Of a stretch of 64,000 bases of DNA, positions 11,422 through 57,751 are shown piece after piece. Position 1 is the stretch's first letter; each line of letters opens with the position of its first letter. Origin of the DNA: Candidatus Nanoarchaeia archaeon (GTDB lineage: Archaea > Nanobdellota > Nanobdellia > Tiddalikarchaeales > Tiddalikarchaeaceae). Below the pieces are notes generated by a model, which was given only the letters and a program-made list of their open reading frames with translations, was not told the origin of the DNA and made no database searches. The stretch lies in assembly GCA_041653395.1 (NCBI GenBank), contig JBAZFK010000002.1, positions 33,215 to 97,214 on the forward strand, in the 5' to 3' direction. A program made the position numbers and the translations under genes.

Positions 11422-11574
11422 TTAAGGCTTAAATACTCCGCAATGACATTTTTTATTAAAAACGAACTCATAGCAAGGGCATTTAGTGTTTAATTTGCAT
11501 AAACAATTTCCATCATTGTCAAAAACATCTTTTAACAGCTTGAAATTAATCTTAAAACCTTCATACTCTTCCAT
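11422..11574 (-). CDS. small Cys-rich protein (three CxC pairs), putative metal-binding
   Basis: 50-aa ORF not in the track. Start overlaps the stop of the upstream methyltransferase gene (TAATG). CLC..CPC..CHC. Confidence 0.3.
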   Translation of the reverse strand: MEEYEGFKINFKLLKDVFDNDGNCLCKLNTKCPCYEFVFNKKCHCGVFKP

Positions 11575-12317
11575 TAATCAGTCACCTCTATTTTCCTAAA
11601 GCACATAATGAATCCAGTATGGCCAAGCATGTCAAACTTTGGATGGCACACCAAATCATTAACATCCCACTCCCTTAATATTAGCTCAAAAACATGGTCT
11701 AATTTAAATTTTTTTGTTGAGAACTCTTTTTGGCTAAGAGTCAATTGAGTTGTATTAGGCACATAAACAGTCAATCTTGAGCCGTTCTTTAACAAGCTAC
11801 TAATTTTGTCAGAGTAATCCCAAGGGTTAGGCAAGTCAATATTTATAGCATCAAATAACTTCCTTGAAGAATACTCCTTTAACTCTTTGTTAATGACTTC
11901 AATGTTTTCAAAACCGAACAAACTAGCATTATTTTTTATTATATTGCAAAACTTTTCATTCTTTTCAACGCTAACAATCCTGCCTTTTGCTCCAACGATG
12001 TTGGCAAAAAAGCAGCTAATAGAGCCGCTGCCTCCTCCACAGTCAAGAACCCTGAAACCTTGCATTAAACCTAGCTGCGATGCAATGAATCCTGCATCTT
12101 TTAAAGTGATTATTTGAGGGCCTCTTTTAATGCTGAACAATAAATCCTTAAAATCAGGTTTTTTAATCAAAAAACTTTTGCCTTTATGAGTCCTAATTAA
12201 ACCTTCATTAATGGAATTATATTCCTCCTTTTTTATCAATCCATAATTAATGTTTAAATCCTGATCAATCTTATCAGAATAGATTTTCTTGTACTCATCA
12301 TTCAATAAAAGTTTCAT
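11574..12317 (-). CDS. class I SAM-dependent methyltransferase, TrmI (tRNA m1A) family-like
   Basis: GFRVLDCGGGSGSIS motif I. Size and layout resemble TrmI/Gcd14. Confidence 0.55.
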   Translation of the reverse strand: MKLLLNDEYKKIYSDKIDQDLNINYGLIKKEEYNSINEGLIRTHKGKSFLIKKPDFKDLLFSIKRGPQIITLKDAGFIASQLGLMQGFRVLDCGGGSGSISCFFANIVGAKGRIVSVEKNEKFCNIIKNNASLFGFENIEVINKELKEYSSRKLFDAINIDLPNPWDYSDKISSLLKNGSRLTVYVPNTTQLTLSQKEFSTKKFKLDHVFELILREWDVNDLVCHPKFDMLGHTGFIMCFRKIEVTD

Positions 12318-30022: not shown

Positions 30023-30095
30023 AATAGATAAATTAATTATTTAATCATTTTAAAACATTACTTTTAAAAATAAATACTAATCTAATTATTCTTAT

Positions 30096-30170
30096 GGTCC
30101 GTTAGCTCAGCTTGGATAGAGCGCCTGCCTTCTAAGCAGGAGGTCGTGGGTTCAAATCCCATACGGACCA
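30096..30170 (+). tRNA. tRNA-Arg (anticodon TCT)
   Basis: Cloverleaf: acceptor ggtccgt/acggacc, anticodon stem cctgc/gcagg, loop cTTCTaa, T-loop ttcaaat. Confidence 0.85.
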
Positions 30171-30646
30171 ATAGTTGACAATCTGGGGAATAAATACCAA
30201 GAAATTTCTTCAACTGTTTTATGAGTTCTTGATTCAATGTTTTTTATTAAAGATTCAATATCTTCCCATTTCCATCCGGTTCTAAAATTAATTTTATCTA
30301 GATTCAAATTAGGTGATGTGCTGATTAGATAATTATTTGCATAGTTGTGGGGGTCTTGTATAAAAAAGCTTTGATGGGCTTCAATCACTTCATGGGCAAG
30401 CATAGGCTTTCTGAATTCCGTAAAATAAATATTGCCTTCTTTCAGCAAATCAACGCATTTTTTTGAATAAATTATGGATAAGCATGTGATTTTTTCATTA
30501 AAATCATAAGTTGCAACATAATTCATGTTTACCTTATCTGAAATGTTCATAGGACCTAGTTCTATTGTTTTAAAATAAGAATTCGCATATTTTTTGTTAA
30601 ACTCATTCAATAATTCTAGCTCAGAGTCTATTAAACAGGATTCCAT
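30152..30646 (-). CDS. hypothetical protein (its 3' end overlaps the tRNA by about 19 nt)
   Basis: 164-aa ORF. The overlap with the tRNA lowers confidence in the exact stop. Confidence 0.35.
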   Translation of the reverse strand: MESCLIDSELELLNEFNKKYANSYFKTIELGPMNISDKVNMNYVATYDFNEKITCLSIIYSKKCVDLLKEGNIYFTEFRKPMLAHEVIEAHQSFFIQDPHNYANNYLISTSPNLNLDKINFRTGWKWEDIESLIKNIESRTHKTVEEISWYLFPRLSTIGPYGI

Positions 30647-32174: not shown

Positions 32175-32321
32175 GAGTCCGTGGCTCAGCTTGGATAGAG
32201 CGACTGCCTCCTAAAAAATTGTGATGATGAGAAGGTCAACTGAAAATTATGTGATGAGACTGACCTACCCTGAGTTTTTGGAGATAGCAGTAGGTCGGGG
32301 GTTCAAATCCCCTCGGGCTCG
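32175..32321 (+). tRNA. tRNA-Arg (anticodon CCT) with a ~72-nt intron at the canonical 37/38 position (exon 1 about 32175-32213, exon 2 about 32286-32321)
   Basis: acceptor gagtccg/cgggctc, D-arm gctc/gagc, anticodon stem actgc...gcagt split by the intron, loop cuCCUaa, T-arm ggggg ttcaaat cccct. Confidence 0.8.
32221..32273 (+). ncRNA. box C/D sRNA embedded in the tRNA-Arg(CCT) intron
   Basis: C gtgatga (32221-27), 12-nt guide, D' ctga (32240-43), 7-nt spacer, C' gtgatga (32251-57), 12-nt guide, D ctga (32270-73). Confidence 0.6.
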
Positions 32322-32344
32322 CTTATTAATATTATAAGTTTTAG

Positions 32345-32400
32345 TTTCCCCCAGGGCTTTGCCTTGCAAAGGGCTGGTTCTAAATCCCCTCGGGCTCGCT
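32345..32400 (+). other. tRNA-trailer element A: conserved hairpin with GG/GG internal loop plus a degenerate copy of the tRNA 3' T-arm/acceptor strand
   Basis: tttcccc CAGggctttgc ctt gcaaagggCTGg ttctaaatcccctcgggctcgct. One of three copies in the window. Confidence 0.6.
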
Positions 32401-32591
32401 TATTATTAAATTAATTCATTAACATAAGTTGTCAATATTTGAGTTGTCTTGAAGGATTTTCCAAAGTACTGCTCGATATTAAAAGCTGCATATTTTTGCA
32501 TAATTTATTTATAATGATTTATTTTTAAAAAACTATATGACATCTTTTGAGTAGTGAAATATTTAAATTGCAGCCAATTAATTATTAAACA

Positions 32592-33812: not shown

Positions 33813-33886
33813 GGGCTTATAGTATAACTTGGATAGTACAGTGGCCTTCGGAGCCGAAAATCAGGGTTCAAATCCCTGTAAGCCCT
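33813..33886 (+). tRNA. tRNA-Arg (anticodon TCG)
   Basis: acceptor gggctta/taagccc, anticodon arm gtggc cTTCGga gccga (one mismatch), T-arm caggg ttcaaat ccctg. Confidence 0.75.
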
Positions 33887-33907
33887 TTAGAGTTTTTTTT
33901 GTTTAAA

Positions 33908-33961
33908 TTTCCCCTGGGGCTTTGCTTACAGCAAAGGGCCAGTTCTAAATCCCTGTAAGCC
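33908..33961 (+). other. tRNA-trailer element B (same family as 32345..32400)
   Basis: tttcccc TGGggctttgc ttaca gcaaagggCCAg ttctaaatccctgtaagcc. The outer stem covaries with elements A and C. Confidence 0.6.
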
Positions 33962-34022
33962 TTCAGACTCCAAGATTTTTTAGAAAAATTATTTAAATAA
34001 AAAGATTGAATAGATTACTATA

Positions 34023-40361: not shown

Positions 40362-40425
40362 AATTTAATAGTAAATTATTCTATTTAAAAAACTTATTAA
40401 AAACCCAAATCTCATTAATATTTAT

Positions 40426-40499
40426 GCCCCTGTAGTATAGCTTGGATAGAACAAGAGATTGCGGATCTTTAGACCCGGGTTCAAATCCCGGCAGGGGCA
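40426..40499 (+). tRNA. tRNA-Arg (anticodon GCG)
   Basis: acceptor gcccctg/caggggc, anticodon arm agaga uuGCGga ucuuu (one G-U), T-arm ccggg ttcaaat cccgg. Confidence 0.7.
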
Positions 40500-40550
40500 T
40501 TGGAAGAAAGGTGTAACACCCTAGTCTTTGCTTTATAAATAACTTTGGAG
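40487..40550 (+). repeat. att-like direct repeat copy 1: tRNA-Arg(GCG) 3' end plus 51 nt of trailer
   Basis: 64 nt nearly identical to 43029..43092 (1 mismatch). The first 14 nt are also at 49753..49766. Confidence 0.6.
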
Positions 40551-40600
40551 ATAAATTAATTTAAATTATAAATATATTGTAACTAAAGAAGTATTAATTA

Positions 40601-42880: not shown

Positions 42881-43010
42881 TTAAAATAAGAATAAATCGG
42901 TATTTAAATATTTATTTAATATTGCTTTAGGGAGTAATAATAATTATTTAAATAAGGAGTTATAAATAATAAAATTGTTTTTATTTATATTTAATAAAAA
43001 ATAGGGGCAG

Positions 43011-43092
43011 TTAACCTTTTCTTTGTCGCCCGGCAGGGGCATTGGAAGAAAGGTGTAACGCCCTAGTCTTTGCTTTATAAATAACTTTGGAG
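43011..43092 (+). repeat. att-like direct repeat copy 2, with element-side arm ttaaccttttct
   Basis: cccggcaggggcattggaagaaaggtgtaacGccctagtctttgctttataaataactttggag. Arm motif shared with copy 3. Confidence 0.6.
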
Positions 43093-43470
43093 GTATTTAA
43101 ATTTATGAAAGACGCATGGGAATTGCACCATTACTATGAAGACTTAGAAAGAAAAGTAAAAAGCAGTTATTATTCAAAATATTATTTAACAATGTTTGGA
43201 GTAGTAAACGAATTCATTTTTTTATTAAGTAAATTTGTTGCACTTATTAATAAAGAAAATTTAAAGGGCTGGTTTAGTTCTGTTAAAAAATGCTCATCAA
43301 TGAAAAAAACAATAAAAGAGTTTTTACCTTTAACTGAATTAATATTAAATAGTAGAACTCCTGAAATTATGTTTGATTCATGCGAAAAATTATGGAAAAA
43401 CTGCAATGAATTAGCTAATAATAAACAAGTAGAAATAAAAAATGTAAATAATTTAAAAGAAATAATTTAA
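43087..43470 (+). CDS. hypothetical protein
   Basis: 127-aa ORF starting inside att copy 2. Confidence 0.35.
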   Translation: MEVFKFMKDAWELHHYYEDLERKVKSSYYSKYYLTMFGVVNEFIFLLSKFVALINKENLKGWFSSVKKCSSMKKTIKEFLPLTELILNSRTPEIMFDSCEKLWKNCNELANNKQVEIKNVNNLKEII

Positions 43471-49586: not shown

Positions 49587-49734
49587 TCTTTAAACTATTA
49601 ATAGTTACTATAAAATTTTTTCTTTTTAACAAAAAATAAGTATTCTATTAATAGAAAATTCGGGAAAAGTTTATATAAAATCTCTGCCTCACTTAATCTT
49701 TGTAAATAAAAAAACGAGCAAAAATTAAGGGTGA

Positions 49735-49766
49735 TTGACCTTTTCTCAGACTCCCGGCAGGGGCAT
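49735..49766 (+). repeat. att-like repeat copy 3: element-side arm plus 14-nt tRNA-Arg(GCG) 3' core
   Basis: ttgaccttttctcagactcccggcaggggcat vs copy 2 ttaaccttttctttgtcgcccggcaggggcat. Confidence 0.55.
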
Positions 49767-56960: not shown

Positions 56961-57064
56961 TAAATTAATAAAGGAAGTTTATTTATAAAGAGAATTGGAT
57001 AAAACTTCCCCTAATGCTCTATTAAAAATAAATATTTATATCTTATTAATCAAAATTAAGTATA

Positions 57065-57472
57065 TTAGTATCCTGTTTGTATATAAATTAATTCACCGCA
57101 AACACCACAAAAATGATATGTTCCTTTATAATCATCTGTAACTTTACTCATGTTAACAAGAGATTCAGTGTGCCCTTTTATGATACCGCAATTACTACAT
57201 TCATAAATATCCCATCGAAAATGTTTAAAATCCTGGATTCCATTATTATCTATAGTATAATAAATAAAACGATAAGTGCCAATATCTAAACAATCTTTTT
57301 TTAAGAATCCAATACCATTATATTCCTTTTTTATTAAATCGTCAAGTGATTTAAAAATAGTGCAGTTATTCCTGCTACATTCGAGCTTGTTTTTAACATT
57401 AATAATAACTATTTTAACTTCATTATCAATATGATCAAAAACATTCATCAGATTGTTGAATGTATTAATCAT
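57065..57472 (-). CDS. zinc-ribbon hypothetical protein
   Basis: CSNC ... CGVC pairs. Confidence 0.4.
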   Translation of the reverse strand: MINTFNNLMNVFDHIDNEVKIVIINVKNKLECSRNNCTIFKSLDDLIKKEYNGIGFLKKDCLDIGTYRFIYYTIDNNGIQDFKHFRWDIYECSNCGIIKGHTESLVNMSKVTDDYKGTYHFCGVCGELIYIQTGY

Positions 57473-57528
57473 TTAAATAGATTAACAAAAATAAATTTTC
57501 CCCAATCATTTAATAAAAAAATTGATTT

Positions 57529-57574
57529 GAGTCTGCCCGGATGAGCCCTTTGCTTCGCAAAGCCCTCGGGGAAA
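57529..57574 (-). other. tRNA-trailer element C (same family as 32345 and 33908), downstream of tRNA-Pro on the minus strand
   Basis: tRNA-sense: tttcccc GAGggctttgc gaa gcaaagggCTC atccgggcagactc. Outer stem gag/ctc covaries. Confidence 0.6.
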
Positions 57575-57590
57575 CTCAATTAAATTTATT

Positions 57591-57664
57591 TGAGTCTGCC
57601 CGGATTTGAACCGGGGCCACAAGGTCCCAAACCTCGAATCCTAACCAAGCTAGACTACAGACCC
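57591..57664 (-). tRNA. tRNA-Pro (anticodon TGG)
   Basis: Reverse complement gives acceptor gggtctg/cagactc, anticodon arm cgagg uuUGGga ccuug, T-arm ccggt ttcaaat ccggg. Confidence 0.8.
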
Positions 57665-57751
57665 AAATAATATTTTATATCAATTTTAGTGCTTTTAAAT
57701 ATTACTTTTTTATGATAATAAAAAAGATTAAAAAACAAGCAGTTTATATAA

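Follow-up and report, generated by a model that had tools for sequence, protein, structure and literature searches.

A hairpin element between tRNA 3'-end repeats behind tRNA genes of Nanoarchaeia

Why does the same short hairpin stand behind several tRNA genes of one archaeal chromosome, each time followed by a partial copy of the very tRNA gene that precedes it? We addressed this question in a 64,000-nt stretch of contig JBAZFK010000002.1 (assembly GCA_041653395.1, positions 33,215 to 97,214, forward strand) from a Candidatus Nanoarchaeia archaeon; this whole stretch is called the window below. The hairpin element is present behind three of the five tRNA genes in the window, those for Arg-CCT, Arg-TCG and Pro-TGG. 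Our analysis indicates that it is probably an insertion at the DNA level and not a piece of trailer RNA. More specifically, we read it as a miniature insertion element, non-coding and non-autonomous, whose targets are the T-loop and 3' flank of tRNA genes, with the hairpin as a cis-acting site for an enzyme supplied in trans, a reading to which we give about an even chance. The element occurs exclusively at tRNA 3' flanks and in fixed orientation, has no coding capacity, lies between repeats that reach into the trailer, carries compensatory changes in its stem and is polymorphic between filled and empty sites.

Architecture of the element

In the window, the three copies share the layout TTTCCCC-NN-GGGCTTTGC-loop-GCAAAGGGC-NN(N), lie 16–23 nt after the tRNA, and behind each of them the 3' part of its own tRNA is repeated. 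Copy A stands behind tRNA-Arg(CCT) (32175–32321, + strand, with an intron at 37/38; assigned from the Rfam tRNA model at 48.1 bits and from its sequence), separated from it by a 23-nt spacer (32322–32344, +). The first direct repeat, AAATCCCCTCGGGCTCGCTTATTA (32305–32328, +), runs from A57 in the T-loop to the tRNA 3' end and a further 7 nt into the trailer. An AT-rich spacer that ends in TTTAG (32329–32344, +) leads to the inserted core (32345–32381, +; 63.9 bits with our covariance model), which consists of TTTCCCC (32345–32351, +), the hairpin (32351–32377, +) and TTCT (32378–32381, +). Within the hairpin, a 4-bp outer stem (32351–54 with 32374–77) and a 6-bp inner stem (32357–62 with 32366–71) are separated by a GG/GG internal loop (32355–56 and 32372–73), and the terminal loop is CTT. 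The second, distal repeat (32382–32405, +) is again AAATCCCCTCGGGCTCGCTTATTA, identical to 32305–32328. A preliminary description of this DNA had placed a folded block 23 nt behind tRNA-Arg(CCT); this distance held, as did the fold as drawn, which is the minimum free energy structure. The degenerate duplicate of the tRNA 3' part that it had reported is present at all three loci, but is longer than was described, continuing in copy A 7 nt past the discriminator with all 24 nt identical.

Copy B (33908–33967, +), which follows tRNA-Arg(TCG) (33813–33886, +), is laid out in the same way. Its first repeat is AAATCCCTGTAAGCCCTTTAGAG (33870–33892, +), its core (33908–33946, +; 64.6 bits) has the outer stem CTGG/CCAG, the loop TTACA and TTCT, and its second repeat, AAATCCCTGTAAGCC-TTCAGA (33947–33967, +), differs from the first by one deletion and one mismatch. 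Copy C (57574–57519, −) also has the layout of copy A and follows tRNA-Pro(TGG) (57590–57665, −). Here the first repeat, ATCCGGGCAGACTCAAATAAATTT (57582–57605, −), starts at A59 of the T-loop, the core (57543–57574, −; 58.2 bits) has the outer stem GAG/CTC and the loop GAA, and the second repeat, ATCCGGGCAGACTCAAATCAATTT (57519–57542, −), is identical to the first at 23 of 24 positions. The recurrence behind these two tRNA genes had been noted before and is borne out: the pattern GGGCTTTGC-N3-7-GCAAAGGGC matched three times against 0.00 matches expected from 100 shuffles, and with filters off the covariance model found only copies A, B and C in the 64 kb (58–65 bits), the next match scoring 12.7 bits. 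Chance or an assembly artefact can be dismissed, given this expectation and the same architecture in independent NCBI, JGI, ENA and Logan assemblies.

Beyond the window, 12 further distinct instances were found in Nanoarchaeia metagenome-assembled genomes (MAGs) and metagenome contigs (L016, L031, L120, L122, L123, L124, L126, L128, L157, L162 and two in L161), which makes 15 in all with the three of the window. A loose pattern scan of genomes yielded at least two real matches, both in Nanoarchaeia MAGs (two of 119 loci among the matches listed, the rest being bacterial terminator-like hairpins), and a stricter scan of metagenomes yielded nine contigs. Orthologous loci fetched through GINS and GrpE homologues added four more instances that were independent of the search pattern. 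At least eight kinds of tRNA carry the element: Arg-CCT, Arg-TCG, Pro, Gln, Lys, Val, Ala and one intron-containing tRNA whose type was not assigned. Wherever upstream DNA was present, the hairpin lay 16–53 nt 3' of a tRNA gene, and its orientation was constant. The covariance model was also run on Nanoarchaeia DNA in two sets of 253 kb and 20 kb (~273 kb); all 16 matches were tRNA-adjacent and none lay elsewhere. A search of relatives of this kind had been suggested in the preliminary description. Two contigs (L016, 1–113; L121, 1–102) contain tandem units in the order hairpin-repeat-spacer-hairpin-repeat, the product expected of unequal exchange between repeats. Both contigs start within the first hairpin; the arrays may be longer and break assemblies. 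In the literature searched, no description of such a hairpin/tRNA-copy element was found.

At all loci, local alignments showed that the duplicate starts within the T-loop and extends past the tRNA end into the trailer. Its length ranges from 17 to 41 nt (41 nt with two mismatches in L031, 34 nt with one mismatch in L120, 24 nt in copies A and C, and 17 nt in L157), and gapped similarity at times continues up to the hairpin. Because the duplicate runs into the trailer, it is a direct repeat at the DNA level that flanks an insert. The insert comprises (T)TGAG-TTTCCCC, the hairpin and usually TTCT, ~40 nt of non-coding DNA, while the AT-rich spacer on the tRNA side varies between loci from 3 to ~50 nt. 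The tRNA gene is left intact, the direct repeats being its 3' part. A second copy of the tRNA 3' 14-mer occurred only at hairpin loci, with one exception, two islands at tRNA-Arg(GCG) that are described below; at L162, where the hairpin has diverged, the distal copy carries two substitutions and so falls outside the limit of one mismatch. The distal copy mirrors the T-loop of the local tRNA (C54 in L126, G57 in L128), and the earlier observation that the 3' tail changes with the adjacent tRNA applied without exception at the loci inside and outside the window.

The minimum free energy structure was the described fold both as RNA and as DNA, with an outer stem of 3–4 bp, the GG/GG internal loop, an inner stem of 6 bp and a loop of 3–5 nt. 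For copies A and C, the fold energy was unexceptional against shuffles (z ~0 to −1). Covariation of the outer stem, already noted from the window copies, was confirmed and now extends over four outer-stem types linked by compensatory changes; three of the subtypes each occur at several different tRNAs. Two outer-stem pairs showed three pair types each, with 98% of cells paired and a collapse of the slid controls, numbers that reflect some three or four independent lineages and no more. Part of the constancy of the inner stem among the metagenome matches is an artefact, as the exact search patterns required it. The pattern-independent orthologues L157 and L162 nevertheless keep the hairpin through further compensatory changes: in L157, one G.G has become a C-G pair, so that one G.G mismatch is left, together with an extra closing C-G and the fourth outer-stem type, and in L162 the closing C-G has become T-A and three pairs have been added. 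L161 holds two perfect copies. The pairing of the hairpin is thus maintained, whereas TTTCCCC and the GG/GG loop, previously called invariant, are so within the window but not beyond it: L157 departs from both, with TTTCCGCC in place of TTTCCCC, and L162 has TTTACCC.

The loop differs in sequence and length in nearly every copy (3–5 nt, and up to 11 nt in L162), which argues for folding as a single strand and against a dimer site in double-stranded DNA; with an arm spacing of 3 to 11 nt, a double-stranded palindromic operator is unlikely. In copy C (57553–57559, −) and in L126, the loop GAA makes the inner stem read GCGAAGC, the classic extra-stable DNA mini-hairpin motif; the loops of the other copies are unrelated, so this may be a coincidence. 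An intramolecular triplex (TTTCCC parallel to AAAGGG) was rejected because no linker lies between TTTCCCC and the outer stem. A known RNA family was likewise rejected: Rfam 15 gave nothing over the hairpin at E ≤ 10, and only tRNAs passed the gathering threshold.

Occupied and empty sites

The preliminary description had called the hairpin part of a conserved structured element that follows tRNA genes and had named its absence from orthologous loci as an outcome that would speak against this. Such absence is what we found at the orthologous loci of all three tRNAs. The tRNA-Pro locus is empty in L129, L131, L132/133 and L134, whose GINS proteins are 80–92% identical to that of the window; these loci have neither hairpin nor repeat, and a T-run directly follows the tRNA. 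The tRNA-Arg(CCT) locus is empty in L156, L157 and L159. The tRNA-Arg(TCG) locus is empty in L156, L159 and L163 and filled in the window, L160, L161, L157 and L162. Counted per genome fragment, 3/5, 1/5, 0/5 and 0/5 tRNAs were occupied, and presence was patchy on a GrpE neighbour-joining tree, which is based on one short protein and is indicative only. Empty orthologous loci and patchy presence argue for an insertion and against a conserved feature of the pre-tRNA or its trailer.

The position of terminators points the same way. A run of 7–9 T, the archaeal terminator signal, lies between tRNA and hairpin in six of 13 loci, and in six others the longest T-run before the hairpin is no more than 4, so that read-through would take in the element. 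As a terminator is variably present before the hairpin, the insertion point takes no account of the transcription unit.

Readings of the insertion and its surroundings

The observed order, an intact tRNA gene with T-loop, 3' end and trailer, then the insert, then a second T-loop half, 3' end and trailer, is the attL-insert-attR arrangement (att, attachment site) of elements that recombine into the tRNA T-loop, in our reading with the insert shrunk to a single recognition hairpin. Such an element would depend for its movement on a recombinase supplied in trans, whether from another part of the genome or from a virus or plasmid. That enzyme would need the hairpin as a cis-acting site, in the form that it takes when folded in single-stranded DNA; this need would explain why pairing is kept while loop sequence and length vary. 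A recombinase is therefore the presumed agent and single-stranded DNA the presumed functional form, the enzyme being by default a tyrosine integrase with T-loop crossover or, alternatively, a single-strand enzyme of the HUH type. Recombination between the two repeats could lead to precise loss, and unequal crossing-over to amplification. The preliminary description had set selection on the fold against an att remnant, which is a false dichotomy: the hairpin lies between two repeats whose behaviour is that of att sites or target duplications. Two of its four candidate roles, a tRNA-specific integration module and a hairpin recognised by a recombinase (in that description an HUH-type transposase), fit our data; a trailer small RNA (sRNA) and an acceptor-strand decoy are unsupported as the reason for the element, given the empty orthologous loci, the T7–T9 runs before the hairpin in 6/13 loci and the trailer DNA within the duplicate.

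Several findings weigh against this proposal. Every locus has a small indel at T-loop positions 56–58 of the distal copy, which is unexpected for conservative site-specific recombination: most copies have +T, L161 has +C, L157 +TT, L031 +TG and L126 +C after A57, and in the GAG/CTC subtype two A are lost. Both repeat copies look locally derived and track lineage-specific T-stem changes in L157 and L161, which makes target duplication a better fit than the conservative exchange of att sites with a foreign element, and the variable repeat length (17–41 nt) is unlike that of any standard transposase. The stems are identical between genomes whose GrpE proteins are only ~79% identical while the loops differ, and L162 shows in-situ compensatory change; the hairpin could therefore be selected per locus, for a host function rather than as a selfish element. 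No cargo-bearing or autonomous version was found in the genome, metagenome, viral or plasmid collections searched. Nor was a virus or plasmid with the hairpin as attP found in three viral-contig scans and in phage and plasmid BLAST collections; all 21 pattern matches in the viral scans were chance matches in GC-rich or coding DNA. Finally, among the ~70 open reading frames (ORFs) of the window, no integrase, transposase, HUH enzyme or reverse transcriptase (RT) was found.

The T-loop 56–58 indel is the chief feature that conservative site-specific recombination does not account for, and it is the basis of the readings that invoke a single-strand enzyme or reverse transcription. A new insertion mechanism that reads tRNA structure is a possibility, although we think it unlikely. 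In an HUH-like form, a structure-specific enzyme acting on single-stranded DNA would form the junction, taking the T-arm hairpin of the tRNA gene and the TTTCCCC hairpin as its two ends; in a form with reverse transcription and a template jump, the enzyme would come to a halt on the pre-tRNA at T-loop bases 57/58, which would be methylated. Both forms would account jointly for why the duplicate starts at T-loop 56–59 and why there is a variable indel at that point while the local tRNA is copied. We know of no integrase, transposase or miniature inverted-repeat transposable element (MITE) system that predicts both.

Also unlikely, though somewhat less so than the three rivals that follow, is the reading in which the copies are decayed remnants of full-size tRNA-integrated viruses, plasmids or islands that lost their cargo, with the hairpin as an arm-type site and the small form itself immobile. 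In its favour, tRNA-Arg(GCG) (40425–40500) in the window, which has no hairpin element, is followed by two islands in tandem, at ~40.5–43.0 kb (2.5 kb) and 43.0–49.75 kb (6.7 kb). The G+C content of these islands is 24–27%, copies of the tRNA 3' end (CCCGGCAGGGGCAT) stand at their borders, and they share a 77-nt left repeat (40487–40563 and 43029–43105; 94% identical). Their right ends (42996–43042 and 49720–49766) are also similar: a small AGG..CCT hairpin is followed by TTTCT and, after another 6 nt, by the tRNA 3' end, which is possibly, by analogy, a full-size counterpart of the hairpin-TTCT-copy junction. The cargo comprises a Fic/DOC protein with a helix-turn-helix domain, an M16 peptidase, an S-adenosylmethionine methyltransferase and a DUF5700 peptidase; an integrase was not recognised in either island. 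Repeat-flanked islands at this gene show that elements do integrate at tRNA 3' ends in this genome, which also speaks for the mobile element proposed above. The DNA downstream of tRNA-Pro and tRNA-Arg(TCG), moreover, is a hot spot of gene content in relatives. However, none of the 14 loci whose upstream DNA could be read has any cargo; the gap between tRNA and hairpin is only 16–53 nt, and independent deletions would not all stop so near the hairpin. In addition, both trailers look native where the repeat enters the trailer, and no loaded version turned up in the metagenome scan or in the ~273 kb of Nanoarchaeia DNA.

We consider it improbable that the hairpin and the copy of the tRNA 3' strand work as RNA in the pre-tRNA trailer, either as a processed sRNA or as a partner or decoy for the 5' acceptor strand. 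The preserved pairing, including the in-situ change in L162, would suit a functional RNA, and about half of the loci (A, C, L031, L120, L122, L162) lack a T-run of at least 5 in the first trailer; several of these have a T-run after the distal copy, and read-through transcripts would include the element. Against this stand the close relatives whose orthologous loci lack the element, the two unoccupied tRNAs among the five of the window and the T7–T9 run before the hairpin in 6/13 loci. The duplicate takes in non-transcribed or trailer DNA, and the distal copy of L162 has drifted by two substitutions and is hence not constrained. A conserved promoter position is not possible, copy C lying only 16 nt from its tRNA. 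Neither the ordinary fold energy nor the Rfam search (no match at E ≤ 10) favours a functional RNA, and there is no bulge-helix-bulge, as the start of the supposed intron and that of exon 2 are identical and not complementary.

Equally doubtful is a DNA hairpin or cruciform that the host maintains beside its tRNA genes, as a barrier to read-through or as a decoy or buffer attachment site that protects them. The constant stem sequence across genomes with ~79% GrpE identity, combined with a different loop in every copy, would agree with host selection, as would the structure kept in the diverged orthologues L157 and L162. In L157 and L161 the distal copy tracks the tRNA, which suggests concerted evolution. 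The element is, however, patchy and dispensable, with many empty orthologous sites and unoccupied tRNAs. Its position relative to the terminator varies, it has no known protein partner, and the invariance of the stem is in part a search bias from the exact patterns.

Retro-duplication has a similarly small chance. Here an RT would copy the pre-tRNA from the trailer to the T-loop, presumably heavily modified (m1I57/m1A58), stall there and jump to a small hairpin RNA, with target-primed fixation of the chimeric cDNA at the locus as the last step. This would account for the left edge of the distal copy, which is always at T-loop 56–59 and has a small variable indel yet local T-loop sequence. A TrmI/GCD14-type m1A57/58 methyltransferase is encoded in the window (11574–12317), the spacers are T-rich and variable in length, and in L031 and copy C the repeat ends inside a native T7 run, where the primary transcript would end. 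In L123 and L128, by contrast, the repeat seems to pass through and beyond a T8–T9 terminator. No RT was found among the ORFs of the window, no source gene for a hairpin RNA is known, and to our knowledge such a pathway has no precedent in archaea.

Four further candidates were rejected: a T-loop intron with a bulge-helix-bulge, because the junctions are identical (AAATCC...) and the internal loop is a symmetric GG/GG; a primer-binding site for tRNA-primed reverse transcription, because the copy reads in the sense of the tRNA, extends into the trailer and has no CCA; a CRISPR (clustered regularly interspaced short palindromic repeats) repeat or a homing guide like those of CRISPR-associated transposons, because the units are single (tandem in L016), with varying loops and 'spacer' lengths and no array; and a casposon-like mini-element, because there are neither terminal inverted repeats nor a fixed 14–15-bp duplication.

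As for the surroundings, the window is AT-rich (G+C ~30%) core chromosome of a DPANN archaeon. The nearest relatives of its proteins are labelled Candidatus Nanoarchaeia, and its housekeeping genes include those for GINS, L44e, eIF2-alpha, GrpE-DnaK-DnaJ, SRP54/FtsY, RadA, primase and TrmI. The remaining tRNA gene, for tRNA-Arg(TCT) at 30095, has no hairpin element behind it. Its last 20 nt are overlapped on the opposite strand by a 164-aa ORF (30152–30646, −) without a Pfam or PHROG match; since a homologue occupies the same place in relatives (L156, L157), this is probably a conserved gene and not an integrase fragment. The intron of tRNA-Arg(CCT) (32212–32283) contains boxes C (TGATGA), D' (CTGA), C' (TGATGA) and D (CTGA), and this C/D-like intron is kept in L160 and L161. 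Its match to archaeal C/D-box models is weak (sR3, 23 bits, E = 0.0034, under the gathering score); from its boxes, the intron likely encodes a C/D guide RNA, in an Arg rather than in the classical Trp tRNA.

The DNA downstream of tRNA-Pro (56961–57590, up to a conserved 227-aa ORF) varies in gene content across L129, L131, L132 and L134: the window has a 135-aa ORF at this place, and the relatives have a 1038-aa BNR-repeat protein, ParE/VapB with an S41 peptidase, a 294-aa ORF, or GrpB with ParE. Flanking tRNA repeats were not detected around this hot spot in the window or in these four relatives. Between tRNA-Arg(TCG) and grpE, some relatives have one or two minus-strand ORFs of 141–155 aa without a Pfam match (L156, 9006–9907; L159, 9470–9907; L162, 6849–7766, downstream of hairpin and repeat); these ORFs are missing in the window, L157, L161 and L163.

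If the element is indeed moved in trans, it points to a recombinase with specificity for the tRNA T-loop, which could be of interest for programmable or site-specific insertion tools. As a clue to the mechanism, the T-loop 56–58 indel is concrete and open to testing. Because filled alleles are distinguishable from empty ones, the element is also a cheap marker of strain-level genome dynamics.

Comparison with known systems

Tyrosine-integrase elements that cross over in the T-loop leave attL/attR duplications of the tRNA 3' end, and the archaeal elements of the pNOB8, SSV and pT26-2 types belong here; Williams is said to have distinguished, in Nucleic Acids Research in 2002, sublocation classes of such elements in tRNA genes that include T-loop crossover. 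The hairpin loci resemble these in that the repeat runs from the T-loop through the tRNA 3' end and beyond with the tRNA intact, in the non-functional T-arm of the displaced partial copy, and in allowing precise loss and tandem arrays. They differ in having no integrase and no cargo, only an insert of ~40 nt and a short AT-rich spacer, and in having the same insert at at least eight different tRNAs, each with a matching local repeat. Moreover, the crossover segment is not identical, as it is in integrase att sites, since the distal copy has +T, +C, +TT, +TG or −AA at 56–58. Partial tRNA fragments in archaea have been ascribed to ordinary integrated elements (PMC9897764, PMC3293823) and are also treated in PMC5495485. 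The element described here explains those partial fragments that confuse tRNA annotation in the present MAGs.

Repetitive extragenic palindromic (REP) elements are imperfect palindromes with a GTAG 5' flank, and their REP-associated tyrosine transposases (RAYTs) are HUH enzymes similar to those of IS200/IS605 that recognise single-stranded DNA. Like REP/RAYT systems and palindrome-associated transposable elements (PATEs), the present element is a 30–40-nt imperfect palindrome with a conserved unpaired 5' flank (TTTCCCC instead of GTAG), and like REPs it has conserved internal mismatches, a free loop, compensatory stem changes and an extragenic site just 3' of genes; in our reading it would likewise be recognised as single-stranded DNA. 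REPs, however, are dispersed genome-wide, are not tRNA-specific and lack a flanking duplication, whereas 16/16 model matches in ~273 kb were tRNA-adjacent here, and no RAYT, TnpA or HUH gene was found in the window. REPs are not known to have been described in DPANN archaea. A PATE of the IS200/IS605 type would have subterminal hairpins at both ends and would insert 3' of a fixed tetra- or pentanucleotide without duplication, unlike the one hairpin and long flanking repeat seen here; the T-loop GTTC could be an insertion target of this type.

With MITEs and cis-mobilizable elements (CIMEs), the latter being att-flanked remnants mobilised in trans by the integrase of a related element, our element shares small size, lack of coding capacity, multiple copies, insertion polymorphism and, presumably, an enzyme in trans. 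It departs from MITEs in that its palindrome lies inside the element; TTTCCCC and (G)TTCT at the two ends show no complementarity and are thus not terminal inverted repeats, and where a MITE would have a short target-site duplication of fixed length, the repeats here are long and variable (17–41 nt). Compared with CIMEs, the element is more than 10-fold smaller and occupies many different att sites.

The integron attC site offers a further parallel: it, too, is a hairpin folded from a single strand in which unpaired bases are conserved, the loop varies in length and the stems covary, and in both cases the hairpin stands at the distal end of the inserted unit, beside a G|TT junction. By eye, however, there is no R''/R' box pairing (GTTRRRY on the 3' side with RYYYAAC on the 5' side), the 3' flank being GTTCTAA and the 5' flank TTTCCCC or variable trailer that is not consistently complementary to it, and there is neither a cassette ORF nor an integron platform; the site is also much shorter. 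Taken together, tRNA-targeted insertion with att-like repeats is a kind of event already known, and the present element, which matches no known family, is moderately novel. If it is a mini-element mobilised in trans, it would rank with the smallest such units known and, in DPANN archaea, would be the first to be described as dedicated to tRNA genes.

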